From IMG/VR virus record IMGVR_UViG_3300031760_000017: a DNA stretch of 64,000 nucleotides. One strand, given 5' to 3'. This stretch comes from a virus. How positions within the stretch are numbered: the stretch's first letter is position 1; each line of letters opens with the position of its first letter. The notes beneath the pieces were generated by a model. The model saw only the letters and a list, made by a program, of their open reading frames with translations. It did not search any database and had not been told where the DNA came from. The position numbers and the translations under genes are program-made. Positions 1-27,375 of the stretch are shown here, one piece after another.

Positions 1-252
1 GAGAAAAAAAGAATTGCTAATTCAAAAGTTAGGTCAACTCTGAAAAAATTAGACCATAATTTTTCTTCACATGGTGCATATAAAAAAATGTATGGACAAT
101 GGGAGATTTGTGATTGGTATTTCTTAGAATCTTGGAAAGAATATTGGGAATGTGAGAAAAGAGCATATAAAAGATTTCCTGAAGTTTATAAAAAACCTTT
201 AAATAAAAAAGAAGCTTATAGAGCTTGGTATAAAGACTATAAAATGAAATAA
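1..252 (+). CDS. hypothetical protein, C-terminal fragment (gene starts upstream of window)
   Basis: Frame 1 is open from base 1 to TAA at 250-252 (...AYRAWYKDYKMK*). No motif recognised. Confidence 0.4.
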   Translation, partial: EKKRIANSKVRSTLKKLDHNFSSHGAYKKMYGQWEICDWYFLESWKEYWECEKRAYKRFPEVYKKPLNKKEAYRAWYKDYKMK

Positions 253-262
253 AATATATATA

Positions 263-388
263 AAGGCATATACAGCAAATTCTCTTTAAGAGATGTGTTG
301 GTTCAAATCCAACATTTGCCGCATGGGCAGATTGGCGCAATGGTTGACGCAAGTGACTCGTAATCACTCTATCTTATTAATATGCCTT
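263..388 (+). ncRNA. circularly permuted tRNA-like RNA (T-arm and 3' acceptor strand lie upstream of 5' acceptor strand, D-arm and anticodon-like arm); Y-RNA/YrlA-like mimic or permuted tRNA-Thr(CGU)
   Basis: Terminal stem AAGGCATAT (263-271) / ATATGCCTT (380-388). T-arm GTTGG-TTCAAAT-CCAAC (297-313). ATTTGCC (314-320) pairs with GGCAGAT (326-332). Then come U8, a D-arm GCGC/AATGGTTGA/CGC containing GG, and an arm AGTGA-CTCGTAA-TCACT (352-368). Hand-folded. Confidence 0.5.
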
Positions 389-395
389 GTTTTAA

Positions 396-467
396 TGGGG
401 TGTCGCCAAGCGGTAAGGCATAGCACTTTGACTGCTACACACGTTGGTTCGATCCCAACCACCCCAG
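396..467 (+). tRNA. tRNA-Gln (anticodon UUG)
   Basis: Acceptor TGGGGTG/CACCCCA. D-arm GCCA-AGCGGTA-AGGC. Anticodon arm TAGCA-CTTTGAC-TGCTA. T-arm GTTGG-TTCGATC-CCAAC. 72 nt, hand-folded. Confidence 0.85.
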
Positions 468-489
468 CTAAAATTGAATGTAGTATAAT

Positions 490-945
490 GTGAATATAGA
501 CGGCGTGTGCGTGCCTAAGCTCTAAAATCGTCGTGAGGAGCCCTCATGGTAACTGCTTCTATAGCTGAAGGTGCCTACTACATCTATTACAATAAGGTCT
601 AGTCAGCCTGTACACAATGGTGAAATGATATATCCGTGTACCGTACTAAAACGTATTAGGTATTGTAATGGCGTTATGGTTCTACCAATACGTTAAATTG
701 GGGAAATGCAAATGGAACTATTTATTATTAGTTGATTCGTTTAACTTAATAAAATCAATCTTTTTTAAGCAATAGTGCATTATTGCTAATGAACGAATCG
801 TGTATAAAAAAGATTGGATTTTAGAACGATTATATGTTGATTGTTTATTAGAAGATGAGGTGCGGAAGCGGGGGCAACGCAGTACCCATAAATGAATGTC
901 TCGGCGTTGAGTAGTCAACTATTAAACAATAAATGTAGAAATCGT
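490..945 (+). ncRNA. long structured non-coding region of unknown class (ribozyme/intron-like or other large ncRNA)
   Basis: No plausible ORF with or without TAG=Gln. G+C is visibly higher than the flanks. Helices include GTACAC (610-615) / GTGTAC (636-641), AACGTATTaGGTA (650-662) / TACCAATACGTT (683-694), GATTCGTT/AACGAATC and AGCAATA/TATTGCT. A crossing pair AAAATCAATCTTTTTT / AAAAAAGATTgGATTTT gives pseudoknot topology. Confidence 0.3.
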
Positions 946-948
946 TTC

Positions 949-1020
949 GCGGGTATCGTATATCGGTTAGTATATTAGCCTTCCAAGCTAAGGGGGTGGG
1001 TTCGATTCCCATTACCCGCT
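949..1020 (+). tRNA. tRNA-Gly (anticodon UCC)
   Basis: Acceptor GCGGGTA/TACCCGC. D-arm GTAT-ATCGGTTA-GTAT. Anticodon arm TTAGC-CTTCCAA-GCTAA. T-arm GTGGG-TTCGATT-CCCAT. 72 nt. Confidence 0.85.
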
Positions 1021-1049
1021 TAACTCACAAAAGTGAGTAAAGATAAAAA

Positions 1050-1156
1050 TGTGCGGTGGTGGAATAAGTAGACACAGACTATATGAAAAGCGAGGTAGCA
1101 TCTGACTCACACAAATTCTCGCGGAGTCATGTGAGGTGTAAATCCTCACCCGCACA
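1050..1156 (+). ncRNA. 107-nt tRNA-like RNA: acceptor, class-II-like D-arm and T-arm, with a 54-nt insert in place of a normal anticodon arm
   Basis: Acceptor TGTGCGG/CCGCACA (7 bp) and U8. D-arm GTG-GAATAAGTAGA-CAC resembles tRNA-Leu. T-arm GTGAGG-TGTAAAT-CCTCAC has a non-canonical loop. In the insert, GCGAG/CTCGC and GACTC/GAGTC interleave, which predicts a pseudoknot. Confidence 0.35.
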
Positions 1157-1162
1157 TTCTTT

Positions 1163-1236
1163 ATACTTGTAGCTCAGACGGAGAGAGCATCGTCCTTCTA
1201 AGTCGAAAGTCGAGGGTTCGAGTCCCCCCAAGTATA
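1163..1236 (+). tRNA. tRNA-Arg (anticodon UCU)
   Basis: Acceptor ATACTTG/CAAGTAT. D-arm GCTC-AGACGGAGA-GAGC. Anticodon arm TCGTC-CTTCTAA-GTCGA (one U-U mismatch). T-arm GAGGG-TTCGAGT-CCCCC. 74 nt. Confidence 0.8.
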
Positions 1237-1239
1237 TAA

Positions 1240-1314
1240 TAGACATATACAGCAAATTTTTTCAAGAATAAGAAATAGACTTTTAATCTATAATTCTAAC
1301 TCAAAGTATGTCTA
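1240..1314 (+). ncRNA. small structured RNA, paralog of the terminal stem and 5' motif of the 263-388 element
   Basis: Stem TAGACATAT (1240-1248) / GTATGTCTA (1306-1314). It shares CATATACAGCAAATT with 267-281. Two stem positions differ from the first element by compensatory changes. An internal hairpin AGAAATAGA-CTTTTAA-TCTAT(AA)TTCT is present. No D-arm or T-arm, so it is not a tRNA. Confidence 0.35.
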
Positions 1315-1323
1315 GTTTTAATT

Positions 1324-1395
1324 GAGCCAATAGCCAAAGGGTTAAGGCAGAGGGCCGCAACCCCTCGATTATAAGTTCAAATCTTATTTGGCTCT
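1324..1395 (+). tRNA. tRNA with anticodon GCA (Cys), unusual C at position 33
   Basis: Acceptor GAGCCAA/TTGGCTC. D-arm GCCA-AAGGGTTA-AGGC. Anticodon arm GAGGG-CCGCAAC-CCCTC. T-arm ATAAG-TTCAAAT-CTTAT. Confidence 0.7.
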
Positions 1396-1397
1396 TA

Positions 1398-1426
1398 TTG
1401 ATTTTTTATAAAATTTTTAGTATAAT
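1398..1426 (+). promoter_or_regulatory. sigma70-type promoter (TTGATT-N17-TATAAT)
   Basis: -35 at 1398-1403 and -10 at 1421-1426, with exact 17-nt spacing. Same architecture as more than 15 other sites in the window. Confidence 0.6.
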
Positions 1427-1490
1427 ATATACATAAGGTTATGAAAATAACCTCAAACAAAGTTTGAAAAGAGATAAAAGGAGAACAATT

Positions 1491-3014
1491 ATGAATACTT
1501 TTCTTAATCAGATGGTAAGAGACAATAACATTACTCGTACAGAGAACGGTGGTGTAACTCGCAAGACAACAGAATCTAAGGTGCTTGATATGTTTGCGGT
1601 TGGCGGTGCTTATAGAAACCGTTCTGATGCAGATGTTATTCTTCTATTTAAGAACGCATTTGAGGAAAACCGTGAACTTGCTATGAAGTGTCTTTTCTAT
1701 CTTCGTGATGTTCGTGGTGGACAGGGTGAAAGACGTTTCTTCAGAACAGCTTTCCGCTGGCTTTGCGATAAGCATCCAGAAGTAGCAAAGAGAAATCTTA
1801 ATAATGTAAGTGAGTATGGTCGATGGGATGATCTTATTTATGTAGCTGAAGACACTAAGTGCCAGACTGCCGCATTTAATATCATTAAGCATCAGCTTGC
1901 TCTTGATGTTCAGTGCAAGACTCCATCTCTGCTTGCTAAGTGGCTGCCTTCTCAGAATGCTTCTAATAAAGATACTAAGCGTCTTGGTCATGTGCTTGCA
2001 AATTATCTTCATATGACAAACAAGGAATATCGTAAGACTCTTTCAGTACTGCGTGAGCGCATCAACGTTCTTGAACGCCTGATGAGTGCAAACCGTTGGG
2101 ATGAAATCGAGTTTGATAAGATTCCTTCAAGAGCTGGTATTATTTATCGTAATGCATTTGCTCGTCGCGACATTCTTGCCAAGAGATATGAAGCATTTGC
2201 TAAGAGTTCAGAAACCAAGGTAAATGCAGAAGCTCTGTACCCGCATGATATTGCACATAGAGCTTTTGATTATGGAATGAAGCGAGCTGACATTAATGCT
2301 CCTGAGCGTCTCATGCTTCAGAAGTATTGGGATAACCTTAAGGATTTCTATAATGGAAGAGAAGAGAATGGCATTGCGGTAGTTGATGTTTCTGGTTCTA
2401 TGAGTGGTATTCCTATGGAAGCCGCAGTTTCTATGGGAGCCTATATCGCAGATAAGGCTCACGGACCATTTGCTAATCACTTTATTACTTTCTCAGCTAA
2501 CCCTGAGCTAGTAAGATTTGAAGGTGTTGACATTGTTGATAAGTTCAATCGTTGTGTAAAGGCAAATTGGGGTATGAATACTAACGTTGCGGCGGTATTT
2601 GATATGCTTCTAAATACAGCTAAGAAGAAGCATGTAAAGGTTGAAGATATGCCTACTCGAATTTATATCTTCTCAGATATGGAATTTGATAAGTGCATGA
2701 CTCTTGATCCTAATTACCATGATGAATGGGGTTGGGGTTGGCATTCATGCAAGCATCCTTCTTCAACTAAGGAAGTAAATTCTGACCTTGAGAAGATCAA
2801 GAGAAAGTGGAGTGCTGCTGGTTATCAGATGCCTTCTGTAATCTTCTGGAATCTCAACGCTAGAAATAATCGTATTCCTGCTATCGGCGATGGTTTCAGT
2901 TATGTGAGTGGATTCTCTCCTTCCATGATTGATTCTATCCTTAGCGGTAAGGACGGTTATGACCTCATGCTTGATAAGCTCATGTCTAAGCGTTATGCGG
3001 CGGTTGTTGCATAA
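1491..3014 (+). CDS. Ro60-like protein: helical DUF2828/TROVE-like N-terminal region plus C-terminal vWA domain
   Basis: ATG at 1491 follows AAAGGAG; the track's 1464 start is an upstream TTG. N-terminal TENGGV...LDMFAVGGAYR. vWA MIDAS motif VVDVSGSM (DxSxS). FSDMEFD and C-terminal GFSPSMIDSIL parallel Ro60/Rsr features as I recall them. TAG-free and G+C-richer than neighbours. Confidence 0.55.
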   Translation: MNTFLNQMVRDNNITRTENGGVTRKTTESKVLDMFAVGGAYRNRSDADVILLFKNAFEENRELAMKCLFYLRDVRGGQGERRFFRTAFRWLCDKHPEVAKRNLNNVSEYGRWDDLIYVAEDTKCQTAAFNIIKHQLALDVQCKTPSLLAKWLPSQNASNKDTKRLGHVLANYLHMTNKEYRKTLSVLRERINVLERLMSANRWDEIEFDKIPSRAGIIYRNAFARRDILAKRYEAFAKSSETKVNAEALYPHDIAHRAFDYGMKRADINAPERLMLQKYWDNLKDFYNGREENGIAVVDVSGSMSGIPMEAAVSMGAYIADKAHGPFANHFITFSANPELVRFEGVDIVDKFNRCVKANWGMNTNVAAVFDMLLNTAKKKHVKVEDMPTRIYIFSDMEFDKCMTLDPNYHDEWGWGWHSCKHPSSTKEVNSDLEKIKRKWSAAGYQMPSVIFWNLNARNNRIPAIGDGFSYVSGFSPSMIDSILSGKDGYDLMLDKLMSKRYAAVVA

Positions 3015-3026
3015 CTTCTATATATA

Positions 3027-3059
3027 AGGCACGCAGAAATGCGTGCCTTTCTTTTTTTT
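3027..3059 (+). terminator. intrinsic terminator
   Basis: Hairpin AAGGCACGC-agaaat-GCGTGCCTT followed by a T-run. Confidence 0.75.
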
Positions 3060-3101
3060 ATATAAAGAAAAAATCTTAGAACCTGGTTAAATGGTTTTTT
3101 A

Positions 3102-3170
3102 AATGGCTCGGCACGCAGACACTCGTATCTCAGAAACGAAAAGCTGGTTTGGATTTTTTATTTTGCATTT
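3102..3170 (+). repeat. conserved ~68-nt element, copy A (second copy at 60203-60270)
   Basis: AATGGCTCGGCACGCAGACACTCGTA...TTTGGATTTTTTATTTTGCATTT aligns with copy B. There are scattered substitutions and one 1-nt indel. Confidence 0.6.
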
Positions 3171-3261
3171 CTTGGGCAGGAATAAATAAATTAATTTTTC
3201 TAATTTTAATATATAATTAGTGAAAAAATAATTTTTAGCAGGAGGAGCATTATAAAAAACT

Positions 3262-3747
3262 ATGGCAGTATTATTAGAACATTATTCTTTATCTGAAATT
3301 TTTATGTTTACTGTCCTTTTAGCTTTAGCTATAAAAAGTTTAGTATCTTTTTTTGATTGGGCCTATACTTATCTTAAAAAATTCTTTAACAAAGAATATA
3401 AAGAGACTGATGAAAAAAAGGACTTAGAAAAAAGATTACAACATGGCAGCTGGGTTATGACAACTTTACAAACAAATCAAGATATAACTGATCAATATTT
3501 AAAAGAGCTATCTGCAAAGATAGATATGTTAATAGATTCAGATAAAGATGCTATAAAATCTTACATAACAAGCAAGCATCATTACTTTTGTTATTAGGTT
3601 GGATGGATTGATGATTTTAGTTTAGATTGTTTAGAAAAACGTTATTTGCATTATGCAAAAGAAGGAGGAAACTCTTTTATTGAAGGTTTTATGAATGATT
3701 TAAGAAATTTACCAAAAAAACCGCCAACAAATAGTGATAAACATTAA
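3262..3747 (+). CDS. hypothetical membrane protein (N-terminal TM helix), 161 aa with TAG=Gln
   Basis: GGAGGAG RBS. Track ORF 3262-3597 continues in frame through TAG (3598-3600) to TAA at 3745-3747. Confidence 0.55.
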
Positions 3748-3778: not shown

Positions 3779-5752
3779 GTGGCTTATTTATCAGGTTTAT
3801 ATCCCCCAGTTATTCCAGATGGGTATCCAGCAATGTTACAATAGGGGGAAACAATAGATTCTAAAAAATATTATAAAATATATTTCTCAATACCCAAATT
3901 AAATTCAATTAATAGCATAGATTTAAGATTTATGCAAATATCAATTAGAAAACAATCTACAAATATTTCTGTTTTAGATAAAACTAAATATTTTTCTGAA
4001 ATATTATTAACAGAAGGTTTTTTAGATAATACTAAATCATCAAATGATTATAATTATTATATATTAGTTCCATTAACTGTTTTTGAAAATAATAAGCTTA
4101 ATATAAATTAGTTATATAAAATTCAATTAAGATTTTGTGCAAAAAATTCTAGTATTCAAGAACCAACTTCTTATAGCGGTTCTGCGCTCTCTGTTTGGTT
4201 AAATACATATAATAATAGATTTTCATAGTGGTCAAGAGTTAGCTTGATAAAAGTAATATCAAAACCTACTTTAAATATAAATGGATTAAATGCTGCTTCT
4301 AACTCTCGAATTACTACATCTTTATTTGAAGTTATTGGCTTATTAAGTTTTACTAATTCATCTGAAAGTGAAATTCTAAAAAGTTATCAAATATTTTTAA
4401 AAGATGCTAGTAAAAAAATAATTTTACATCAATCTGATATTATTTATTCAAATAATCTTAATAATCCTAATTAGATTAATTATGCTATTCCATATGAAAT
4501 GTCAGATAGATTAAATTATTATATTACTATACATTATACTACTAATAATCTATATGAAAATACTGTTAATTATCAAATTAATACATATTTTACAAACACT
4601 ACTATAAATCCTCTAAATGTATTTTCTGCAATAGGGAATGAAGAAGATGGATATATAAAACTTACTATAAAAAGCAAGGGCGTTAATTTATATTCTAACA
4701 ATAATATAAAACCATTAGAATTAATTATTAAAAGATCTTCTTCAAAAACTAATTTTACTATATGGGAAGATTGGAAGATTTTTTCTTATACTGAAAAGTA
4801 TATAGATAAATAGTTTTATGATATGACAATAGAAAGCGGAATTTGGTACAAATATGGCTTGCAAATGCGCGGGACTGATTCAAATGGGCGTATAGTAAGA
4901 ACTAATATGCAGTCAATGAACAAACCTGCAATGTGTATTTTTGACAATATGTATTTAACAACAAAAGATAAACAACTAAAAATAAAATTTAACCCCGCAA
5001 TTAGCCAATTAAAATATAATGTATTAGAATCTCAACAAAATACTTTAGGAAGTCAATTTCCATATATTACTAGAAATGGAAATAATTATTATAGAACTTT
5101 TTCTATTGGCGGAATTATATCTGCTTTATCTGAAATTTTACATGAAGATAACTTATATATTTAGACAAGTTTTGAAACTAAAAACTATTGGGAAAAACCT
5201 TATTCTGTTGCGGGAGTTCTTAATAAAAAAGATATGTGGGGCGCTCCTTAGGAAGATATAGATTATAAGAAAAATGGTAATTCTGCAATTATCTTAGAAG
5301 GAGATCTTAATCAAAATACTGAATCAATTTTTGATAGTGTAGGTTTAAATGAGGATGATAATTTAATTCATAATACATAGATTGCGGCAAGCAATAATAC
5401 TTAGATGTTTTCTACAAAAAATAAAAGATTATTTGCTACAGATTCAGAAATTTATAATTAGCAATAGGAATTATATGAAGAATATAATTCAGAACATGGT
5501 ATAAATAAATATCAAGATTTTATTTATGAAAGAGAATTTAGAAAATTAGTTTTTGATTTTTTAAATTCAAATGAAATTAAATTATTCCGTTCAACACAAG
5601 AAGGTAATATCTTAATCAGATTAATTGGAATAAATTTTGAACCAGTTGAAGGAACAAATAGATTAGTTTATTCATTTTCCGCAACCGCAGTTGAAATAGG
5701 GGAAGATACTATTAGTAATTATAAAAAATATAATATTTTAAAGGAGGATTAA
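3779..5752 (+). CDS. tail/baseplate structural protein, 657 aa with TAG=Gln
   Basis: GTG start 8 nt after AAAGGAG. Track ORFs 4244, 4499 and 4823 share its frame. Hand translation shows only TAG interruptions and ends at TAA 5750-5752. Confidence 0.6.
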
Positions 5753-5755
5753 TAT

Positions 5756-7672
5756 ATGAAACATAATTTTCCATATTTACAAGATTCCTCTTTTTTAAAA
5801 TAGTTTGATTAGTTACAATTAAAAGAAAAATTCGTTAAAATTATTGTTTTAAATTTTAAAGAATAGCCAATAGCAGAAATACAAGGGCGTGTAACTGGCG
5901 GCAGTATAAATGTAGATGGATCTTCTAGTATGCGGCGAACCGCAAATCTGTCTGCTATTGTTAAATAGTAGGATTATAATATTTTAGATGTAAGAAATTT
6001 ATTATCAATTAATAAGAAAATAGAAATATTAATTGGCTTTACAAATTTAACTAATAAATATTCTGACTTTCCAATTATTTGGTTCCCTGAGGGAGTATAT
6101 TTAATTTTTTCGCCAAATATTACTCAAAGTGAGACTGGAATTAATATCTCTTTAACTTTAAGGGATAAAATGACGTTATTGAATGGAGAATGCGGCGGTT
6201 CATTTCCCGCATCAGTTACTTTTCATTAGATTGAAGATATTGATGAAAATGGAAATGTAATTATTTCTAATCCAACTATATATCAAATTATTGTTGAATT
6301 AGTAAATCATTTTGGTGAAATCCCGCTGGATAAAATTATTATAAGTGATGTTGACACTAGAATTAAACAAACAGTTCAATGGATTGGTTCTTACCCAGTT
6401 TATTTTGCTAAACATAATAATGAGTTACAAGGTTAGTTTTCTACTAATTATTTTTAGCTCAGACAAACTTTTTCAGATAATGAAATCAAAACATATAATT
6501 ATGGAGATGCTGTTGGATATGTATTAACCGATTTTATTTATCCTGGTGAATTAATAGGAAATGCTGGAGAAAATGTTGTTACTATTTTAGATAAAATAAA
6601 AAATTTACTTGGTAATTTTGAATATTTTTTTGATACAGAAGGTAATTTTCATTTTCAAGAAGTTAAAAATTATCTAAATACAACTTATCCTACAACTTTA
6701 GAAAAAGATCGAGGAAATTTAGATAATTATCTAGTAGACTATGTTGATGGCGCATCTGTATATAGTTTTGAAGATAACAAAATTATTTCATCTATTTCAG
6801 TAGCCCCTTCTTATGAACAAATTAAAAATGATTTTATTGTGTGGGGTAAAAGAACTGAATTAACTGGTGCGGAAGTTCCAATAAGGTATCATTTAGCTAT
6901 TGATAAATGTCCACGAAACAATATATTGCATCAAGGTTTTTATGAATATGTTGATCCATAGGATGATTTAACTAAATATACAAAAAAAGTAATTACTGGA
7001 CAAAACTCAATTAATATTACTTCAAGAGATTATAGAACTGAATTATATTTACAAGGAGTTGAATCTGAAAATACAGCTACCGCAAGTAATTATTATTTTA
7101 TTGAATTAAAGAATTAGTGGCCGAAAATTTATAATATAAAATAGGGAACTTTTTTAGAAGAGTCTTTTGATAATTTAGATTATTTTTTAGATATTATAGA
7201 TACTTCCGCATAGATAGGAAAATTTAGTGTTTAGAATATTGGAAGACGGACAGTAGTTATAAACGATGATTCTATTAATTGTATTTTTGAACCATAGTAT
7301 CCAGAAGTTGTTTTTATAAAAACAGTGGATCAAGATGATCAAGAGTCAAATCCTATAAGAATTGAATGTGAAAATAAAAAAATAGATTATACACAGATAA
7401 AACCAGAAATGTTTAATTTTCTTTTTCAAGGAAATCCTTATAAGTCTGCCTATGAAGAAATAAGGACAGAATTATATCAATATACAACATATAATGAACA
7501 AATAAATTTATCTATTTTACCAATTTATTATTTTGAACCAAATACAAGAATTACTGTAAAGAACAATTAGATTGGGATAGGTGGAGATTATATGATTAAC
7601 AGTTTTTCAATACCTCTTGATATAAATGGCATAATGAATTTAACTTGTATAAAAACATTAGAAAGGATATAA
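5756..7672 (+). CDS. tail/baseplate structural protein, 638 aa with TAG=Gln
   Basis: ATG 5756 is preceded by AAGGAGG. It is in frame with track ORF 7325-7570. Contains QGRVTGGSINVDGSSSMRRTANLS, a phage minor-tail-like motif. Only TAG interrupts the frame, and TAA lies at 7670-7672. Confidence 0.6.
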
Positions 7673-7696: not shown

Positions 7697-8703
7697 ATAT
7701 ATTTTTGATGATCTTGTTTAACTTTTTCATTTGAAACATGTGCATAATGTAAAGTAGTTTCAAGCTAAGAATGTCCTAATACACTTTGAATAGATTCAAT
7801 TGGCATGCCTCTGTTTATCGCAGTTGTTGCCATAGTATATCTAAAACGATGTGGAATAATATCTTCAACACCGCTATTCTAAGTTAATTGATGCAATCTT
7901 TTTCTAACTCCTGAAGTACTTAATCTATTATAAGGGAATCTTAAAGACACAAAAAGAGCTTCATTATTATCTTTTCTTTCATTTATATAGTTTTTTATAC
8001 TAACTACAGTTTTTGCATCTATATAAACAGTTCTCCATTTTCCACCTTTTCCGCAAACAATAATTTCCCTCTTATTTAAATCAACATCTTTAATATTTAA
8101 ACCTACACATTCAGAAATTCTAATACCTGATGAAATTAGTAAATCTACAATAGCAATATCTCTATTTGTTTTACAAGCTCTTCTTATCTATTCTATATCT
8201 ATATCAGTGTACTATTGCCTTGGTTTTACATTAGACTTCTATCTTCTTATTCTTACTGAAGGATCTTTCTAAATATACTCTTCTTCATATAGCCATTTAA
8301 AAAAAGATCGTATAATACTTTTTCTTTGATTTAATGTTTCAGTACTTAATGGTTTACCAGTTTTTTTATTTTTAGATATATATTGAATATATAAACGAAG
8401 ATGATTAACAGTTATTTTTTCTAAAGGTAAACTTAAATAGTTTAACATATCCTATAAACACATTTTATATTGTTCTTTACTTTTTTCTGACATTCTACCC
8501 TATTGCTCTTTTGCCGCCATATAAATATAATAAGCTTCTGGTAATTGATAATTTTCATCTTTTAAATCTACAAAATTTGGTGTGATATTATAATTAAGAG
8601 AATAAGTATTTAATATATTTTTAATTTTATCTATATCCTATCTTTTAAAAAACGGCTATATTTTTAAACAAAATCCTTCAACAAAAGATAAGTTTGAAGA
8701 CAT
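7690..8703 (-). CDS. tyrosine recombinase/integrase (XerC/D-like), 337 aa with TAG=Gln
   Basis: Hand translation gives ...SSGIRISE..., HRFRYTMATT, LGHS-TAG-LETTLHYAHV (catalytic R, HxxR, H and Y). About 10 in-frame TAGs, with no TAA/TGA until 7692-7690. Confidence 0.8.
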
Positions 8704-8912: not shown

Positions 8913-10181
8913 TTACTCACCTAAGATTGTGCCATCGACATACTCAAGACGTTTTACAACAAAATCACGTATCTGCAAAATGTTGTTGTCCGTCTTTCCG
9001 GGGATCGTAATAAAAGCCCCGTCTGCTGTTGTCTCTGCATAATCCTCGGCATAAAGATATGGCGGAATCTGGCTTATGAACTTGTCGAACTCTCCGAGAA
9101 TATTTCCGGCAGAAAGTACGGTTTCTCTAAGTTCCTGATACCTTGCTATTACATCGCTCTGGAAAAGATTCCAAATACGATAATGCAGGTAGTTGTCCTC
9201 TTGAAACTGCGTATATCCGTTATAATTCTCTTGGAAGATTGTGTTATAAGGACGCCATGTTACTTCTTCCTGTCGCACAAGTCCGGTCATTCCCCACGTA
9301 GAATCCAAATCGTACAAACCTGTGTACCACTGTTCTGCATCATACGTAAAAAATGTCTGATTCTTTGCGATCAGGTCAATGGCACATATAGCCCTTACGA
9401 ATATATGCATATCAATGAGCGATTGCAGGTCAATCTTTGAATCTATCCCGGCTATAAACTGCGCATCTGTTGAATTACATATAAACGCCAGTACGGAAGT
9501 CCAACTATCGGCAATGACTGTTGGCATTTCATCGTGAAGTTCATCAGACCATTTTCCATTCATTGTCGGCTGTCTGAAAAACATCGTGTTATCATCAGCA
9601 AGCCCATCTGTCTGAATAATGCAGTTTGTTTCCTCGTCAGAATCCACACCGTACATACCGTCTTTCGGTAAATTCCATGTATAAAGACCATAGTATACAC
9701 CGTTGTGGTAGACCTTGACCGGGAATCCATCAATCGCAAGATTGCTCTTTCTCAGCGTAGCAGGTAGGGATGCAAAATTACTCCTTGACCTGACTGCCTG
9801 TGACCAAAGACGGGCATTAACAATATTTCTTGCATGGCTGTGGTCTATCCAGTTTGCTTTAAGGACAAACTTATTTCTAGGTTTATCCCAATCTCTGAAA
9901 AGACGTTTGCTCTTTGATTTTCTTGCGCTGTCTGTAAAAAGATTTATCGTGTAATTTTTCTTTGGATAGTAGGCAGATGAATCTCCTTGTACTTTAGCTG
10001 TAGCGTAATCCGTGAATGATTCCGTTGCGCTCTTGTATGTTATCTTAATGTTGCTCTTGCCTTCTGTCTTTGTCGCATACAGTTCACCCTCGATGGACAC
10101 AACTGGAATATCACCGTCATTGGGTTCATATCCGCCTACGTTTACAATATTTCCATGATAATCATAAATATAAGCCATCAT
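8913..10181 (-). CDS. CotH-family (kinase-like) protein, probable tail-fibre or receptor-binding accessory
   Basis: Intact 422-aa ORF in the standard code. LKANWIDHSHARNIVNARLW and the following segments resemble CotH. G+C-richer and TAG-free. Confidence 0.6.
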   Translation of the reverse strand: MMAYIYDYHGNIVNVGGYEPNDGDIPVVSIEGELYATKTEGKSNIKITYKSATESFTDYATAKVQGDSSAYYPKKNYTINLFTDSARKSKSKRLFRDWDKPRNKFVLKANWIDHSHARNIVNARLWSQAVRSRSNFASLPATLRKSNLAIDGFPVKVYHNGVYYGLYTWNLPKDGMYGVDSDEETNCIIQTDGLADDNTMFFRQPTMNGKWSDELHDEMPTVIADSWTSVLAFICNSTDAQFIAGIDSKIDLQSLIDMHIFVRAICAIDLIAKNQTFFTYDAEQWYTGLYDLDSTWGMTGLVRQEEVTWRPYNTIFQENYNGYTQFQEDNYLHYRIWNLFQSDVIARYQELRETVLSAGNILGEFDKFISQIPPYLYAEDYAETTADGAFITIPGKTDNNILQIRDFVVKRLEYVDGTILGE

Positions 10182-13603: not shown

Positions 13604-16600
13604 TCAATCTATATAACCAACCCATCCTCTATACGGACTACCATATGAATGTCCATCATACCATCTTCCAAGAGCATAACCCCATTCAAAATAAAGAATC
13701 CGAGGAGAACTTGAATCATTTGGATCTGCATGCTCGATCCATATATCTGTAACAATCTGTCCCCAAGAAACTTTTTGATTATCATAAGTAAAATAATCAG
13801 CTTCTAATTCTTCAGTTGAAAGATAATCTGATCTAATTTGTGAAGCAGTCAAATAATCTGATCTAATTTGTGAAGCAGTTAGATAATTTGCATTAAGAGT
13901 TTGAGTAGAAACATAATTTGCTTTAACTTGATTAAATTCTGCTTTATCAGCATATAATGTATCACATTTTATAATCATCTTATCAGTCAAACTTCCAGAA
14001 TAATAACTGTTGGTCATATCACTAGCCATAACAGTATTAGGATCTAACCAAGAGTCACCTGAGCCTCCTATAGTAAAACCATATCCATTTAAGGACTGTC
14101 CACTCATAACCTATCCATAAATTTTCCCAAAATAAGCATCTCCATTTGCGCTAATAGACCAAGAAGGACCAGATATACTACCCTCATAATCAAGAGAAAG
14201 ATTACCAGCTTTTAAATCATAAGTATTAATATTCCATCCGCCTATCTGTCCGGAGCTTGCATTTATCTCGCCTGATAAATTTACATTAGATGCTGTTAGA
14301 TTACCATTATTATCAACAGAAAATCTAGAACCAAGAGCAATTTCATCAGTTCCAATATAAACGCTTCTATTATTTCCTTTTGTTCCAAAAGAAATTGAAC
14401 TTAAATTAGCTGTAAAATCTCCTTTAATAGTCCAATGATTTCCAGATAAATACCCCATTTCTAAAGTCGCAGGTTTTATTGTTCCATTATCTGAATATCT
14501 ATTAGTAAATCTAAAAGAATTTCCTAAAGATAAGCCAAGAGGAGATAAATGAAAACCATCAGCTGTATTAGTTAATTCTGTTTTATTTCCACTATAAATA
14601 CGACTACGATCAGCTTCTAAAGTAATTTTTTGACTATTTAAAGAATTACTTTCAGTACCAATTAATTTAGTACCATTTATAGTCCAACCGCCAATTTGAC
14701 CAGATGTTGCGGTAATTTTCCCACTTAAATCTGTATTAGTAGCAACTAAATTTCCATTAGAATCTACTTTAAAACGTCCTGAACCATATCTTATTTCAGG
14801 TTTTGTTAAATCAATTAATAAACCTTGACCTTTTTCATTACTAGATGTATAATTAGATGGTAAGCCATTTTCATTATAATTTTTCCAAAAATTACCACTA
14901 TATAATAAAGCATGACTAGTACTTGGATCTATTACAATTTGCCCATTGTTAGCTTTTCCAAATAACGCAGAACCATTTTCACTATTTAAAAAGAAAGTTC
15001 TATCACCTTTATTATATCCTAATAATCCAATGTCAGGAGCAGTCTTATCTGGATTTTTAACTTCACCCATTAAAACTCCAGTAAAACTATTATCATTTTC
15101 TTTTTTACCTGCGCCCATTTGCGGAGCTAAGATATAACCACCCTTATCATCTAATTGAATACTGTTGCCATCCCAAGCGTTAATATGAGCTAATCCATAT
15201 TTATTTAATAAGAAATGAATAGGAATATGAATTCTAGCAATAACCTAATTATTATTAACACTTTTAACAGTACATACTAAAGCATTATTAACACACTAGC
15301 CGCTATACCTTGAAGCTGGTCGACATATGCATTGATTCTTTTGTAAATTTTTAGTATAATAACTCTAAGTTAATAACTCTAAATCATGAGAATCGTTATT
15401 ATAAGGAAACTAATCATACTAACCTACTTCAATCTAATGTGTCTGTATTATATTTATAACATCACCATTAACTGAATAACTAAAATTAACTGCATGACTT
15501 CCAGAAACTAATGATATATCTTCCCATTTATTATTTATTTTTTCTTTAATAATAAATTCAAAAGGTTTAGAATTGTCATATTGAGGAGATAAACCATCAG
15601 AACTATACATGACATATCTAAATCCAGTATAATCTTTTAATTCAATTCTATAATTATCATTTTTAACCCATGCAGTTGCAATAGGCAATGTACTATAATA
15701 TGAGTGCTGATTATAAGTTATTGTGCATTTTAGAATATCTGCTAATGTTTGCGTAAAAGTAGTGTCTATTGGATGTGCTGTTGTATTCACATATGAAATA
15801 AGTCCAGTATTAGCATTTACAATATTAAAAGAACTTTCATCAGTAAAATTTGTTTTATAAAAATTCTTTAACATGTTCCAAGTTACAGAACTAGGACTAG
15901 TTACACCATCTTTTGGATTTGCGGCAGTTGAAGTTCCTTCCCAAATCAAATCTCCACTTTGCCATAGCTGAGCTTTAAATAAGGTTTTTCCAACATTAAA
16001 TCCTGCAGTTTGCTACTATCCAGTTCCGCTTGCCGCAAAATTAATAATATAAGAATTAGAATCTCCTATTGCTGTTAAAGTAGGGTAAATAGGTAATATT
16101 TTTGCTGTACTATTTGGAACAATTTTCACAATATATTGGGTCCCATTTGTACCAGGTTCTCCCTATTTTACAAAAGTAAAGTTAGTTTTTGCAACTAAAT
16201 TAATCTACTTATAAGTTACAAATAATTCAATCTGATTATTTAATTTTTTTACATCATATTTTTGTGCAATATCATAAACTAAAGTATCTAAATTTGAATA
16301 ATATCTATAACCTTCCTATTCAACTGCCCATGTTTTATTGTTTTTGTCAACTAATAAAGTATTTTCAATAGGAATTTTCCAAGTAACTTGTCTTTTCTTT
16401 ATATCATCAGTAATATCATTCCCTAAATTATCATATACCTTAAAAGTTAAAGCTAAAATCTATTGCGGATCATCTAAACTTTTACTATTAGGCGCAATAC
16501 CATTCTAATTATATTTATATGATGCAGAGCCATTTTCAATAATTAGTGAATATATATTTTCCGCCTATAAAGAATTACTTAAAGTAATTGAAGCTGTTCC

Positions 16601-18295
16601 TATATAATTATGATTTAAATCTTCTACCGTACATTTAAATATAGCAAATCCATCTATTGCATTAACTTGTAAATCATAAATTTTATTTTTACTTACTCTT
16701 TGTGTATATTTAAAATTAGAAAGAGTAGTTTCATAATTATTTAGTTCTTGTTGTGCTTCATTTTTAAATCTAGTTCCAGCTTGAATACTATTTTTTAATG
16801 ACTGCAAAGCATTATAAGTAGTTGTATAGTTATTATTTAATTCAGTCGTTGTTTCTAAAGCTTCTAATCCACAGTTATTATTTTGCCAAGCCCAATAGTA
16901 ATTATAATTTTGTATATTTTCAACTCCATTTACTTTACAAGTTAATGTTGGATGTCCAATATCATAATAAAATTGAGTGCCACTATCTGACTATATTATA
17001 ATATCTGCCGCATTAGCTTGTAAATTTTGAATTGTGATTTCCTTAGAAATAACTGTATTATCATATAAAACCGCAACTTTTAATTTATTTTCTCTTGCAG
17101 TTGCATCTTCTCGATAAACTATATAAGTACTATCTCCAGGCACCCATTCTATTTGAGGAGCTTGAGTTGCAGTTCCAGGTGAAATAATATTTTTTTCATT
17201 TACACATTTCCAACCGCGTCCTAAATGTTGATTATAATACTAACTATTTGCAAAAATACCAACATTTTCTTTTCCCCAATAGAAAGATAAATTTTGAGAA
17301 TCTGATACTAATTTTCCTTTTATTCTTACCTGTGCGGTAACTATTAATTCTTCTTTTGGAGAAGGATTTGTAGCTTGTTTAAAGAAAATACCTTTTGGAG
17401 TATAAAATGAAATAGATATTCCATTATTTTCTTCATCGCTTTTTCTTATAGCACCTAAAATTTCAACAGAAGAAATAAAGATATTTACTCCATTATCTGT
17501 TGATCTTAAAGGATAATGCTAAGGTGTCCCGGATGCTGAATTAGGAAAATCCTAGCAAAAGATTTCAATAGAATCAATTCTAACAAAGTTTTCTCCATCT
17601 ATTTCAAAAATCTAATATTGTCTAGTATTATGTTCAAATCTATAAGGATTACCTGTCATATTATCTTCATCAAGCGTATAGCTTTTAATTATCTATTTAG
17701 AATTTCCATTAGATTCTAAATTAGAATTATCATTAAATACTAAATTAAAAGTTATACCATAATGACCTTGATATTGTTCCTATAATGGAATAGTATTTCT
17801 TATAGTCATTCCTGCAATTAAAGAAGATGCTTTTTTAATATATTGATTTAAAGCATCATTATCTAATTTTAGCGGTGATGAGCTAACTCCATATTTATAA
17901 ATAACATAACTATATTTCTTATATTTTGTAGCTAAATAATAAATGCCGCTTGTTGTAACGCAATTCTTACCTAATATATCATATGCCTACTATCCAACCG
18001 CTTCAGAAACATAGTTAATTCCAAGTTTCTAAGTTGTACCAAGAATAGTTTTATCTTTGCTCATATCATTTCCTGGAACTAAAATATAAACATATGCACC
18101 TTTAGAATAAGTAATATCTGCCGAACCCGCATACGCAAAAAAAGTTGTATCTTGATAACGACATTTATATTTTCCTATTGTCGCATCTTCACAAGAAATA
18201 ATTTGAGCTTGAATAGTTTTATCATATCCAGCTTTTTTTATTGAATTATTAGTTAATAATTCAATCGCGTCTAAAATTTTCTAATTAACGCCCAT
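13604..18295 (-). CDS. giant tail hub/fibre protein, 1563 aa with TAG=Gln
   Basis: Track ORFs at 16807, 15949, 15118 and 14107 all share the frame of ATG 18295. Hand translation of 15118-15434 and other stretches shows only TAG interruptions. The N-terminus is OB-fold-like (GAYVYILVPGNDMSKDKTILG). The C-terminus has repeated SGQIGGW(T/N)IN motifs. Confidence 0.65.
13823..13890 (-). repeat. 30-nt tandem repeat (about 2.3 copies) inside the giant tail gene
   Basis: ATAATCTGATCTAATTTGTGAAGCAGT(C/T)A(A/G) occurs twice plus a partial copy. It encodes YLTASQIRSD repeats. Confidence 0.8.
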
Positions 18296-18383
18296 CTTTT
18301 ATCTCCTTATATCTCTTGTCTTTTATATTATAACATAAATTTTTTATTTCTTCAAACCAGTTTAAAGAATATTATGTTAAATT

Positions 18384-18611: not shown

Positions 18612-21600
18612 TTATTTTCTTCTCATAGCACGTTGAGCCGCTAAATTAACTAAATCATTTAAAGCTTCTTCAATCTATTGTTTACTATTTACAGCAGGGA
18701 AAGATGCTGAAATCTGAACTTTTTGATCAATAACATCACTAAGAGTTGAAGCTGAATTTAAAGAAAATCTATCAGTAGAGATTTTCCCAATTTTATTTAA
18801 TAAAGATGTTCCTATATTTTTTGTAATAGATCTTAAAATAGAAACACTATTTAAAATATTTCTAGTATCTTCTGAATTTAAAACTAATTCTTTTTCATCC
18901 AATATTGCTAAACGACCTTGTTTTGAATTCCAACTTCCTGTATATCCACCTGTATCATATCTTTTTATTTTTCTATTATAAAGTCCAACAGGATCATTTA
19001 TATTCATATGAAGAACGTCATGATTATCTAAATGTCTAAGATCTCCAACTCTATTGCTATTATAATCATAGACTCCATTATCAGCTCCTCTTCCCCATCT
19101 ATAATGATTTTCTGAGCCATTAGGATAATATGTTTCAGATTCAGGCTCTTCATAAGAAACAGTATCTTGCATTCTGTTTAAAGCATCTTGATAGCGGTCA
19201 GCAGCAGACTACATTCTACTAGCATTAGCTTCTGCATTACTTGCTAAAGCATCTAAAGCCGCTTGAGCTTCATTACTATAATCCCAATCAGCATCCGCCA
19301 TTCGAATCCTCATATCTTCATAAGTCTGCGCAGTTGCCTAAGCTGATGCGGCAGCCTATTGCTAAGCTTGAACGAAATCATATAATTGAGTAACTGCATT
19401 TGCCGCAGCTGTATAAACAGAATCATAATCATAAACAAGAGCTTGAGCAGCATCTCTTAAATCTTGAATAGCAGATAATTCATCAGCCATTCTATTGATT
19501 AAATCATCATTAACTTCAATTAATCCAGTAAATTCATCTATTAAATTATCTACTCCATTTTGAACATCATTTAAATCTATACCAGCAGTATTAGCTAAAC
19601 TATCAAGTTCTTGCTAATAATTAAAAGTAGCCTCATGAATCTCTTCAAAAGCTTCTTGACAAGATGGTATAAAACCGCCCTATCCCGCAACTTTATCAGA
19701 CATCTATTGAATACCGCTATTCCATGCTGGAACTAAATCGCCCATTAGAATACCTTTTTCATCATCTGTCATCTTTTGATAATTTGCAACATCTATGTTA
19801 TAAATTGCGGCAATCTCATTAAAAGCAGATTCAGTTAGATTTTTTCTAATATCAGAATTTTGTTGAGCTTTATTATTAATATATTCTCCATATTGCTCTT
19901 TTAATAAAGCTAGCTATCTAACTCTTTCTTCTTCTGTTAAAGAAGTATCAGTAACTATATCTTTATATTTCTATTGGAAATCTCTCCAAGCAGAAAGCAT
20001 TTCCTATAAATTATTTTGATAACGCTATTTATCAAAATTATATAATTCATTTTGAGCACTAATTAATCCTTGTTCAGCATCAAAAATACCATTTTGATCA
20101 GCAACATATTGATAAGAATAGTTACCTTGTGAATCACGTTTTAATCTTAAAGAAGTTTTACTTGCTCTTATATCTTCTAAAGCAATTCGTGCTTGTTCAA
20201 TTTGAAGCATCTTCTACGCTCTATCTACATCATATTGAGTAATCTTCTATTTATTCTTTAAATTATCTAATTGCTCATCCATAACTTTCTTTAAAGCTTG
20301 TTGATGTTTCAATTGATTTGGATTATTTAATGATTTTTGGAACTTATTTTGTAAATCCTGAAGAGCAAAAGCAGCATTAATTGTATCTAAGTATTCATCC
20401 GCATTTTTATTCATTAAATCCCATTCATCACTTAAATAATCAGTACCTTTTCCGTCTGTAATTTTCTTATCTAGCTAATCAAAAATTTTATCAATAGCAT
20501 TACTGTATTTTTCACTGATTGTTTTTGCGGAAGTTTCTATTAAAGAATTGATTTCCTTAATAGCGTTTTTATAATTTTCTTCAAATTGTTTTGCCGCATT
20601 AGTATCTCCCGCTAATAAAGCTTGCTACCATTCTTGTTTCCAAAAAGCAATCTATTTTCTTAAAGCATCTATTTGATTATTTTGATTTTTTTCTAATTCA
20701 GCATAATAATTTTCCATAGCTTCATAATTTTCATCACCATAAAGCAATTTTAATAAATCCATATCATGCTAAATTAAATCATTAATAAAATCATAATCAT
20801 CTTGTTGTTTCTCAAATTGTTTAGAAATATCATCAATAGTATCTAAATAAGCTTTATCAATATCCGCAATTAAATCTTCAATATCCTACATTTGTTTCAT
20901 TAATTCGGATAAATCACTTTTTAAATCCGCCATAGCTTGTGCTTTATTATTACCATAAATTGCGGAAGTTCCTTTTTTATCTATATCTTCTATTTCTTTA
21001 CGAGTATTTAATAATTGCTATGTTAATTTTTGAACAGTACCTATTGAACCATTTATATTAAAGAAAGAATCTAAATCCATAACATTTTTAGTAGCATCTT
21101 TAAAAATCTTATCGAAATCAGTATCTTTCATAAAATCAGTTTTATTAATTACATTTCTTACAAACTAATTCCAATCTTTTGCAGCTTCGCCCATCTATAA
21201 TCGAATTTCAAGCTACATTCTAAATTTTTTAATATTAATTTCAATCTACTTTTGGGCAATCTATTCAATCTAATCTACTATATCTTCCATGCTATTTCTT
21301 AAAGAATCATAATCTTTAATTTTAGCTTGAGTATTTTTTAAATCTTCTTGAGCAGATTGCACAGCTTTATCATAAGCTGAAATTTGTTTATCTAATCCTT
21401 CTTTATAAGTTTTATCAGTAGAAGCATTATAAGATTCAATTAAACTATTCTATTCATTTATTAATCTATTAACCGCATCTTGTTTAGCTTGTAATATAGA
21501 CATATAATCATTTATATTTCCATATTCATCAAAAGTAACTCCTAATGAATTTAGAATTTGCTGTTGATTAGCTAAATCTTGTCTTTGAAGCTATTGCTTT

Positions 21601-27263: not shown

Positions 27264-27375
27264 CCTTTTATCTCCTTTTTATATATTTAAAATCATGTGA
27301 TAAAAAATCTTCTTCTATATATAATATAAAAAAATGACATTTTTGATTATCATAACTCGACCATATACTTTTTTC

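Follow-up and report, generated by a model that had tools for sequence, protein, structure and literature searches.

The DNA considered here is a viral sequence of 64,000 nucleotides (nt), IMG/VR record IMGVR_UViG_3300031760_000017, whose whole length is referred to as the window. Its gene at 1491–3014 on the plus strand encodes a protein of 507 amino acids (aa) in which an N-terminal helical ring, DUF2828, precedes DUF7788, a von Willebrand factor A (vWA) domain with a metal ion-dependent adhesion site (MIDAS). This protein shares the two-domain architecture of Ro60 and is a true homolog of it; its sequence places it in a sister family outside Pfam TROVE, and DUF2828/DUF7788 is a true branch of Ro60. 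Small structured RNAs that share a terminal stem and the motif CAGCAA are encoded upstream on the same strand, and the same module lies beside same-strand DUF2828 genes in at least ten unrelated phage lineages. Judging from the homology to Ro60 and the Y RNA-like modular design of the RNAs, the ring protein and the CAGCAA RNAs probably form a divergent particle of the Ro60–Y RNA type. Such particles have been described in animals, in about 5% of bacteria and in a few phages, and their roles outside Deinococcus and Salmonella are poorly understood.

A Ro60 Homolog of the DUF2828 Family

A preliminary description of the window, made from the nucleotide letters and their translations, had proposed a Ro60-like protein with a vWA domain and an intact MIDAS motif. 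The open reading frame (ORF) starts with ATG, just after aaaaGGAGaacaatt, and its translation contains every motif quoted there: TENGG (aa 17–21), LDMFAVGGAYR (32–42), DVSGSM (299–304), FSDMEFD (394–400) and GFSPSMIDSIL (474–484). The protein scores above the gathering cut-offs of the Pfam hidden Markov models (HMMs) DUF2828 (PF11443; E = 3e-31, 109.2 bits against 29) and DUF7788 (PF25043; E = 4e-48, 164.2 bits against 27.1). Its residues 1–503 match PHROG 850 (phrog_850, 'RNA-binding protein') at E = 5e-124, and it is a member of this Pfam and PHROG family over its full length. VWA_2 is a weak Pfam match (E = 0.016), and a search of NCBIfam with the protein gave no match.

The homology to Ro60 runs from end to end. 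In HHalign, the DUF2828+DUF7788 profile aligns with a TROVE+vWA profile, from a family gathered with the Ro60 of Thermus phage phiLo as query, at 99.05% and E = 1.9e-18 over 393 columns (12–453 of 480 against 16–460 of 488). The landmarks that the preliminary description had listed as parallels to Ro60 are paired in this alignment over the full length: TENGG with T(H)EGA, VVDVSGSM with LVDVSGSM, SDMEF with TDEQ, and SGFSPS with GWSE. AlphaFold2, given an alignment of 124 sequences, models the window protein with a pLDDT of 84.7 and a pTM of 0.84, and the predicted fold is a helical-repeat ring closed by the vWA domain, as in the Ro60/TROVE superfamily. Comparison with Ro60 rings had been suggested as a check, and in Foldseek against the PDB the only matches at E < 1e-3 are indeed the Ro60 proteins of phiLo (9kop) and Xenopus (2i91, 9nep), which cover the full length at TM 0.51–0.58; the next matches are restricted to the vWA domain, at E > 0.05.

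Among 124 aligned homologs, the MIDAS residues D299, S301, S303, T364 and D396 are invariant, which gives the vWA domain the complete DxSxS...T...D signature. Because vWA domains usually mediate protein contacts, this invariance lends support to an alternative in which the protein acts mainly through its vWA domain and MIDAS as a protein-binding anti-defense factor, for example by blocking Ppl, and the RNAs are passengers or cis-regulatory leaders. The phenotype of the homolog gp130 in phage Bas63, which is directed at a candidate for DNA-directed defense, agrees with such a role, and an ACAGCAA in the 5' untranslated region (UTR) of the KVP40 gene itself would suit autoregulation. However, the whole Ro60 ring is conserved in the family, and the most conserved residues sit in this N-terminal ring, at TENGG, RDxRGGxGER, GRWDD and AKWxP, the last three being invariant across the DUF2828 family. 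Moreover, across more than ten lineages the RNA module accompanies the gene on its own strand, with a sharp peak beside it. An explanation by the vWA domain without an RNA partner is thus quite unlikely.

A structural vWA protein of the virion without an RNA role would fit one annotation, that of the homolog in the jumbo phage Pectobacterium phage CBB as 'structural protein'. The gene lies, however, among tRNA genes and TAG-free genes of early or replication type, outside any structural module, and together with the Ro60 fold and homology and the annotation of other homologs as RNA-binding or Ro-like, this makes a virion role very improbable.

The family is large, with at least 8000 close database entries and 6705 clusters at 50% identity (E ≤ 1e-3). 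It is carried in 698 cultured-phage records, all below 60% identity to the window protein, which include Felixounavirus, KVP40-like, Listeria, Staphylococcus, Enterococcus, Campylobacter and Bacillus phages, cyanophages, jumbo phages and mycobacteriophages. A megablast search of 24 kb of the window against cultured phages gave no match. The annotations of these relatives range from 'hypothetical' and 'DUF2828' to 'Ro-like RNA binding protein'; for the family at large, 'hypothetical' or a loose 'RNA-binding' is the most frequent label. The likeness to Ro60 is already public in this SEA-PHAGES name, in the PHROG label 'RNA-binding protein' and in the PhageMaP preprint of 2024 (PMC11482910).

CAGCAA RNAs in the Window and in Other Phages

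Two members of the RNA family are encoded upstream of the gene. The first, at 262–390 (+), is a YrlA-like tRNA mimic recognized by its fold, by a descriptor and by a covariance model (CM; 61.8 bits, E = 3e-10). It comprises, in order, the stem strand AGGCAUAU, ACAGCAA, a V hairpin, a T arm (GUUGGUUCAAAUCCAAC), a 7-bp acceptor with the loop GCAUG, a D arm, an anticodon-like hairpin (loop CUCGUAA) and the stem strand AUAUGCCU followed by UG. The architecture is that of YrlA, with a 5' motif, V stem-loop, T arm, closed acceptor stem-loop, D arm and terminal stem, to which the anticodon-like hairpin is added; the YrlA motif GNCGAAN0-1G is absent near the 5' end, where ACAGCAA stands instead. The stretch 255–395 folds better than all 200 of its shuffles (z = −2.98), with the terminal stem enclosing the arms, and Rfam detects only a partial tRNA within the element (326–387, 25.6 bits). 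The second RNA, at 1239–1316 (+), is a minimal member without a tRNA-like body, found by a strict module scan and by the CM (32.5 bits, E = 5e-4; E = 6.5e-6 over 3.3 kb). It consists of AGACAUAU, ACAGCAA, two small hairpins and GUAUGUCU followed by AG, and its 3' end lies 175 nt upstream of the start codon.

The preliminary description had counted three to four non-canonical structured RNAs here. Two are the family members just described. A further stretch at 1048–1158 (+), between tRNA-Gly and tRNA-Arg, is predicted to be very stable: it folds at −41.2 kcal/mol (z = −4.12; 0 of 200 shuffles as good) with an 8-bp terminal stem and a T-arm-like hairpin with the unusual loop UGUAAAU, is called by neither ARAGORN, Rfam nor the CAGCAA model, and is conserved only in the two closest relatives (L004 and L037). 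The spacers 469–610, 600–720 and 840–948 fold no better than shuffles (z = +0.46, +0.89 and −0.25) and are not counted as structured RNAs.

The constant frame of the family was derived by aligning by eye the matches of a descriptor, 'T arm then closed 7-bp acceptor', which gave 48 matches in fetched loci, all on the gene strand. The frame is a 5' strand that is usually AGACNN(N), 1–3 nt, CAGCAA, a variable insert, NNGUCU and (U/A)G. In type A, the commonest form, the insert holds a V hairpin, T arm, closed acceptor and D arm and has no anticodon arm. This is the order of elements described for YrlA, in which the 5' motif of the terminal stem is followed by V, T, closed acceptor and D (Chen et al., 2014, PMC4201824; RF02553). 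Type B adds an anticodon-like arm before the T arm and type C, to which 262–390 belongs, adds one after the D arm; in the minimal type the terminal stem is almost empty.

Covariation supports the terminal stem. In elements defined solely by sequence anchors (77 distinct stems), the two pairs beside AGAC/GUCU form in 93.5% and 94.8% of stems, against 45% and 65% after shuffling, and all four Watson–Crick types are seen at these pairs. When 32 type-A elements are folded together in RNAalifold, the terminal stem, T arm, acceptor and D arm are all predicted, and 19 of the 23 pairs show compensatory changes. This count is partly circular because the selection filter required pairing of the T arm and acceptor; the D arm was not selected.

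The CM was built from metagenomic elements only, with cultured phages and the window outside its training. In addition to the two window elements, it recognizes elements of Bacillus phage Thrax3 (80.6 bits), Klebsiella phage KP13-16 (76.3 bits), Enterococcus phage Bill (two elements, 74.8 and 71.4 bits) and Bas63 (L001 8423–8551, 49.0 bits). The Rfam YrlA model aligns at full length and exactly on such elements at scores below its gathering score of 69: 44.9 and 34.4 bits in Bill, 37.5 bits in Thrax3, and 36.9, 32.3 and 29.0 bits on IMG/VR elements.

Linkage of the RNAs to DUF2828 Genes

The genomic association of the gene with the RNA was observed from both sides. The forward set consisted of 79 diverse DUF2828 loci, each taken with 4 kb of flanking sequence in either direction. 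Pattern-defined modules occur 98 times on the gene strand and 12 times on the opposite strand; they are most frequent within 500 nt of the gene, with 32 upstream and 15 downstream, and bins farther away contain 1–8 each. CM matches at E ≤ 1e-3 number 74 on the gene strand and 0 on the opposite strand, and pattern and CM combined are positive in 54 of the 79 loci. In the reverse direction, a scan of IMG/VR with the RNA pattern alone gave at least 120 stretches, of which 80 listed loci (mean 8.4 kb) were analyzed. A DUF2828 gene is present in 33 of these 80 listed loci, and many of the encoded proteins are 30–47% identical to the window protein; among the loci listed, all 41 RNA matches in those 33 are on the gene strand, 15 of them within 500 nt upstream. 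Six of the 21 listed loci with a complete gene have no tRNA, yet the RNA lies 140–400 nt upstream, and the link between RNA and protein is therefore separable from the link to tRNA arrays. These scans, together with the transfer of the CM, bear out the co-occurrence with permuted tRNA-like RNAs in other genomes that the preliminary description had put forward for testing.

The modules adjoin the gene in various arrangements. Tandem modules stand just before it in Thrax3 (three, after a TTGACA...TATAAT promoter), Listeria phage LMSP-25 (three) and Campylobacter phage F375 (two), and Bill has two tRNA-like modules and one minimal module in this position. They stand just after the gene in Staphylococcus phage S-CoN_Ph12 (three), KP13-16 (five) and mycobacteriophage Aegeus (three, with G+C-rich stems), and modules also adjoin DUF2828 in E. 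coli phage Bas63 and in cyanophage genomes. In KVP40 (L003 5974), an ACAGCAA lies in the 5' UTR of the DUF2828 gene, 27 nt before the start codon and just behind a TTTACA...TATAAT promoter; a clear partner strand was not detected downstream of it, and autoregulation is possible at this site. Ro60–Y RNA loci are marked by nearby same-strand RNAs whose terminal stem carries a conserved motif, and the phage loci show this arrangement with a variant motif, CAGCAA after an AGACNN stem.

In controls, the module is absent from the T4 tRNA cluster (L214, searched for CAGC[AG]A), including rnaC and rnaD (6909–7172), and from the intergenic region that precedes the Ro60 gene of phiLo, which is of TROVE type. 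T4 is not known to carry a DUF2828 gene. The T4 RNAs rnaC and rnaD are long-known stable RNAs of unknown function at the end of the tRNA cluster; rnaC terminates in a T-arm-like hairpin. The idea that the module is a mere promoter or terminator of the arrays was also considered, and is ruled out by the stem covariation, the strand specificity, the peak beside the gene and the tRNA-less loci.

Relation of the RNAs to tRNAs

The inserts resemble tRNAs closely enough for maturation into tRNAs to be the main rival explanation, albeit an unlikely one. It holds that the CAGCAA elements are permuted or split tRNA genes, or array-processing signals, that mature into tRNAs, and that the Ro60-like protein is a chaperone or scaffold with no Y RNA particle. 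Opening of the acceptor would fall to RNase P, and joining or healing of the ends to the ligase, kinase and phosphoesterase of the phage. The 7-bp acceptor stems suit RNase P, and their closing loops start with NCCA in 46 of 123 cases, or 32 of 53 when the loop has at least 7 nt, where about 2 are expected by chance. The anticodon-like loops of types B and C have 7 nt, with U33, a purine at 37 and mostly the triplets GUA (Tyr) and GAU (Ile). In Cronobacter phage S13 (L213 5896–6138) and Synechococcus phage B23 (L210 5866–5975), the RNA occurs in unpermuted form, its acceptor and CCA being free. Modules are also distributed through tRNA arrays. The three enzymes are encoded in the window, a ligase lies beside DUF2828 in GAP32, and RtcB is near it in a Listeria phage. 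In M. smegmatis, YrlA itself is cut by RNase P and receives CCA (PMC4201824).

Maturation does not account for the family as a whole, however. Type A offers no anticodon arm, many members are minimal, with a stem and CAGCAA, and unable to become tRNAs, and such minimal modules flank the gene without an adjacent array, for example in a Staphylococcus phage and a mycobacteriophage. The triplet also varies (CGU, UCU, UAU) among near-identical copies, and the constant part, stem plus CAGCAA, is what would be expected of a protein-binding handle. An intron-like element, or one resembling a bulge–helix–bulge, that yields a tRNA on removal is ruled out for the commonest type, in which no anticodon arm would remain.

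The varying triplets are found in type-C copies that are otherwise 90–93% identical: CGU in the window (350–366), UCU in L004 (~8650–8666) and UAU in L037 (~9230–9246), within a frame CU-NNN-AA that is kept. Such variation points to an 'anticodon' that is either free of constraint or under diversifying selection. In the unpermuted RNAs, the module is an internal hairpin (CAAACUGACAAGUUUG) followed by UAUUCAGCA, which contains UUCAGCA. Since the same RNA thus occurs in permuted and unpermuted forms, the three-dimensional object seems to matter more than where the RNA ends lie.

Several of these RNAs are visible in public records under other names. The unpermuted RNAs of S13 and B23 are annotated as over-long 'tRNA-Ser', 'tRNA-OTHER' or 'tRNA-Undet' genes of 110–121 nt just downstream of DUF2828. 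Tiny 'hypothetical protein' coding sequences (CDSs) overlie CAGCAA modules on either strand, as in Aegeus gp61 (L002 7484–7627), S-CoN_Ph12 CDS0026 (L208 5519–5608), Bas63 0137/0138 (L001 8391–8665) and L205 7393–7605, and are probably mis-annotated RNA genes. In locus L093, just upstream of DUF2828, the stretches 119–237 and 330–449 (~120 nt) match Rfam tRNA at 46 and 52.6 bits, and ARAGORN finds no tRNA in the locus; they overlap a match to the CAGCAA pattern (382–438) and may represent tRNA-like RNAs interrupted by insertions of ~50 nt.

tRNA Arrays and Transcription of the Gene

As the preliminary description stated, the gene follows four tRNAs on its own strand, on which ARAGORN and Rfam agree: tRNA-Gln (UUG; 396–468), tRNA-Gly (UCC; 949–1020), tRNA-Arg (UCU; 1162–1237) and tRNA-Cys (GCA; 1324–1395), the last before the gene. 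They are the only Rfam matches in the window at gathering level. The linkage to tRNA arrays extends to other genomes. In 80 IMG/VR loci of related phages, whose proteins are 50–98% identical to the window protein, ARAGORN finds 807 tRNAs in 644 kb upstream of the gene, all on the gene strand, and none in 735 kb downstream, and tRNA-Cys(GCA) is the last tRNA in 47 of the 80. In independent cultured lineages, an array precedes the gene by 240–1200 nt in Thrax3, LMSP-25, F375 and Bill, the KVP40 gene lies 3.4 kb after its array, and the gene directly precedes the array in Bas63/Felixounavirus and KP13-16. Among the loci examined, those of Aegeus and a Staphylococcus phage have no adjacent tRNA array.

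The gene looks like a transcription unit of its own because a promoter-like site precedes it and a strong terminator hairpin follows it. The sigma-70-like site TTGATT-17-TATAAT (1398–1426, +; 10 of 12 matches in a consensus scan) is a putative promoter, and an intrinsic-terminator-like hairpin of 10 bp (6 G–C) with a following T run (3026–3059, +) begins 12 nt past the stop codon. An AT-rich motif of ~50 nt at 1395–1447 (+) encloses the promoter-like site. It is repeated at 80–94% identity at several sites per genome in related phages (blastn; L004–L083), with copies within tRNA arrays and downstream of the gene, and probably represents a class of phage promoter.

The arrays have further features of their own. 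The tRNA-Cys(GCA) before the gene is 80–87 nt long in many relatives (L014–L024 9720–9806 and similar), against 72 nt in the window, a length unusual for a class I tRNA. In the group of L014, a type-B permuted element at 9810–9943 (anticodon-like GUA) occupies the last 190 nt before the start codon. Genes for tmRNA lie inside arrays upstream of DUF2828 in L012 (8425–8702), L050 (1380–1679), L066 (7448–7792), L074 (8859–9209), L075 (6312–6660) and L207 (4382–4729). The array of Bill also holds a ROOL RNA (260.6 bits; L207 2311–2897), and that of LMSP-25 a ROOL match that stays below threshold (88.5 bits, gathering score 99.1; L205 6470–7021) and a drum RNA (50.2 bits; L205 3983–4081). In the window, the 395 nt at 507–901 (+), between tRNA-Gln and tRNA-Gly, are present in L004 (93% identity) and absent from L037, where 506 joins 902; this stretch is an indel, parts of which fold no better than shuffles. 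A 43-nt piece at 872–914 reappears at 98% identity upstream of a tRNA-Leu in the divergent locus L064 (705–747).

A Candidate Ro60–Y RNA-Type Particle

In the proposed mechanism, the gene, which is TAG-free like the replication genes and lies where the tRNA array ends (on its 3' side), would be transcribed from a promoter of its own. The ring protein would bind small phage RNAs through their terminal stem (AGACNN/NNGUCU) and the single-stranded CAGCAA. Ro60 itself binds Y RNA at its outer surface and RNA 3' ends within its central cavity. The variable tRNA-mimic body of YrlA type, with its closed 7-bp acceptor, could then be presented to tRNA-recognizing host factors or serve to decoy them; candidates are RNase P, the CCA-adding enzyme, tRNA-directed nucleases, PNPase and RNA ligases. 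A role in the tRNA pool or in counter-defense early in infection is likely: the particle might protect the tRNAs, control their quality or repair them, or it might neutralize host defenses and decoy nucleases.

Several observations weigh against a particle of the Ro60–Y RNA type. To our knowledge, direct evidence of RNA binding is lacking for every DUF2828 protein. The window protein does not match the Pfam TROVE HMM (PF05731) at E ≤ 1, so that, of the DUF2828/TROVE likeness first proposed, the DUF2828 assignment and the profile homology to TROVE+vWA hold and a direct TROVE match does not. Sequence-based profile searches of the PDB were marginal (E 0.4–1.1) and centered around the MIDAS site, and a single-sequence search against PDB sequences was not significant; structure and profile–profile comparison were therefore needed. 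On the RNA side, the CAGCAA RNAs lack the YrlA motif GNCGAA and score below the Rfam gathering score, and within window positions 1–3600 the YrlA model (RF02553; gathering score 69 bits) gives no match at E ≤ 10. No module was found within 4 kb in 25 of the 79 diverse DUF2828 loci. In the phage group of the window, modules are spread through the whole 10-kb tRNA array, and part of the linkage could therefore reflect shared array membership. The covariation is partly circular for the T arm and acceptor, as noted, and the controls comprise one tRNA array and one TROVE-type locus. Finally, the RNA ligase, kinase and phosphoesterase genes are all present in the window but lie 30 kb from the Ro60-like gene, whereas such genes adjoin DUF2828 in some other lineages.

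A bolder variant, which has a small chance of being correct, combines the tRNA-like features with the ring. The RNAs would be permuted or split tRNA-like genes with the CAGCAA handle grafted at the anticodon loop, at position 26 or at the variable region; the ring would hold them while RNase P opens the acceptor and the ligase reseals, or they would be decoys for anticodon nucleases. If true, such a tRNA assembly or decoy particle would counter tRNA-targeting defense and would explain the encoded CCA, the changing anticodon-like triplets and the co-occurrence with arrays and RNA-repair enzymes.

Comparison with Known Systems

The closest bacterial counterpart of the candidate Ro60–Y RNA-type particle is Ro60 (Rsr) with YrlA or YrlB. 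The proteins share a HEAT-like ring and a vWA domain with MIDAS, homologous by profile and fold, and in both systems the partner RNAs are encoded on the same strand, a few hundred nt to a few kb away. YrlA and the phage RNAs have a terminal stem with a 5'-side motif, followed by the V hairpin, T arm, closed acceptor and D arm; the smaller phage RNAs without a full tRNA body are comparable to YrlB, and the 7-bp acceptors with CCA recall M. smegmatis YrlA. In contrast, the window protein belongs to Pfam DUF2828/DUF7788 instead of TROVE, the phage motif is CAGCAA after an AGAC stem instead of GNCGAA(N)G, and phage elements reach 29–45 bits of the 69 required by the YrlA model, with no match for those of the window. 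Some phage RNAs add an anticodon-like arm and some are unpermuted, with the module as an internal hairpin. The genomic setting is a phage tRNA array, unlike the rsr–rtcBA operon of bacteria.

Among phages, Thermus phage phiLo encodes phiRo60, which together with its Yrl RNAs binds the PNPase of the host and slows this enzyme (PMC12135203). The phiRo60–Yrl1/Yrl2 system (PMC12135203; 9KOP, 9L5Y) resembles the present one in that the Ro60 ring, the best Foldseek match of the model, is phage-encoded and the genes of its small partner RNAs lie just upstream of its own, and manipulation of host RNA decay or defense has been proposed for it (PMC12135203). It differs in being a TROVE-family member with CGAA-motif RNAs and no CAGCAA module upstream, and its identity to the window protein in structural alignment is 15–17%.

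Within the DUF2828 family, gp130 of Bas63 (Escherichia phage JohannRWettstein) has both DUF2828 and DUF7788 and is 31.8% identical to the window protein over 96% of its length. The PhageMaP preprint describes a Ro60-like predicted structure for gp130, encoded next to a tRNA array, and suggests that some of the 'tRNAs' might be Y RNAs; gp130 counters the Ppl defense system, and its deletion leads to small plaques (PMC11482910). This activity against Ppl is the sole experimental datum for the DUF2828 family. In Bas63 the gene precedes the tRNA array, whereas in the window it follows. The RNAs, unidentified in the preprint, can now be located as the element described above (L001 8423–8551, 49 bits) and smaller modules.

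TAG Recoding and Neighboring Genes

TAG is evidently read as sense in a subset of window genes. Reading it so merges many broken frames into long ORFs, such as 18612–27278 (−), with 2888 codons and 71 in-frame TAGs, and raises the content of ORFs of at least 150 codons in the whole window from 11.8k to 19.6k codons; 13604–18298 (−) and 3779–7672 (+) are further examples. A tRNA-CUA occurs in the arrays of related phages, consistent with TAG recoding. The gene at 1491–3014 had been described as TAG-free and compositionally distinct, and both points are correct: it has no in-frame TAG, against 10–71 in the neighboring ORFs when TAG is read as sense, and its G+C content is 0.39–0.41, against about 0.24–0.30 in the flanks. 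The genes for an RNA ligase, topoisomerase II, NAD-dependent DNA ligase, DnaB-like helicase and Dda-like helicase are also TAG-free. This status, common to the Ro60-like gene and replication genes, fits expression before recoding, as far as sequence can indicate.

The preliminary description had also pointed to an RNA ligase, kinase and phosphoesterase at 33779–36667. Pfam bears out these identities, and at such a distance the link to the Ro60-like gene is loose. The RNA ligase (33779–35017, +; RNA_ligase with a PHA02142 OB domain; PHROG 968) is a candidate functional partner that may belong to the same system. It is followed by a P-loop kinase (35646–36146, +; AAA_33/KTI12-like), a candidate polynucleotide kinase, and by a calcineurin-like metallophosphoesterase (36146–36667, +), a candidate RNA 3'-end healing enzyme. 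The same ligase type (PHA02142) is encoded directly upstream of the DUF2828 gene in GAP32; RtcB and a phosphoesterase are near DUF2828 in LMSP-25, a metallophosphatase adjoins it in Thrax3, and a phosphoesterase and a band-7 protein are near the Ro-like gene of Aegeus, with the band-7 gene two genes upstream.

A vault-like gene lies 0.5 kb upstream of the RNA ligase gene. The encoded protein resembles major vault protein and SPFH proteins (30774–33263, +; MVP_shoulder, Vault_3 and Band_7 in Pfam), its frame is continuous only with one TAG read through, and it has no PHROG match. One genome thus encodes a vault-like protein and a Ro60-like protein of the TROVE superfamily, a notable combination. 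Burroughs and Aravind reportedly proposed in 2016 that TROVE-type and SPFH/Band-7-type scaffolds work with Y or tRNA-like RNAs, RNA ligase, kinase and phosphatase. The window resembles such vault/RNA-repair scaffold systems in encoding Ro60-like and MVP-shoulder/Band-7 proteins, an RNA ligase, a kinase and a phosphoesterase; in contrast to them, its genes are spread over 35 kb and form no single operon.

Implications

The assignment of the protein alone will not surprise a specialist. What is new is the cognate RNA family, together with its occurrence in many phage lineages and its connection with tRNA arrays; literature searches, of incomplete coverage, yielded no earlier account of the CAGCAA module, nor of YrlA-like RNAs that accompany DUF2828 proteins, nor of permuted tRNA-like genes in phages. 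In public records, the CAGCAA RNAs are unannotated, hidden under tiny 'hypothetical protein' calls or entered as odd 'tRNA-OTHER' features. The DUF2828 family thereby gains a searchable RNA partner with a defined handle, an AGACNN stem plus CAGCAA, and natural examples of one RNA in permuted and unpermuted forms. It can now be asked if the RNAs are required, which factors the tRNA-like body recruits and what binds the system to the tRNA arrays of phages, and through the RNA partner the activity of Bas63 gp130 against Ppl becomes mechanistically testable.

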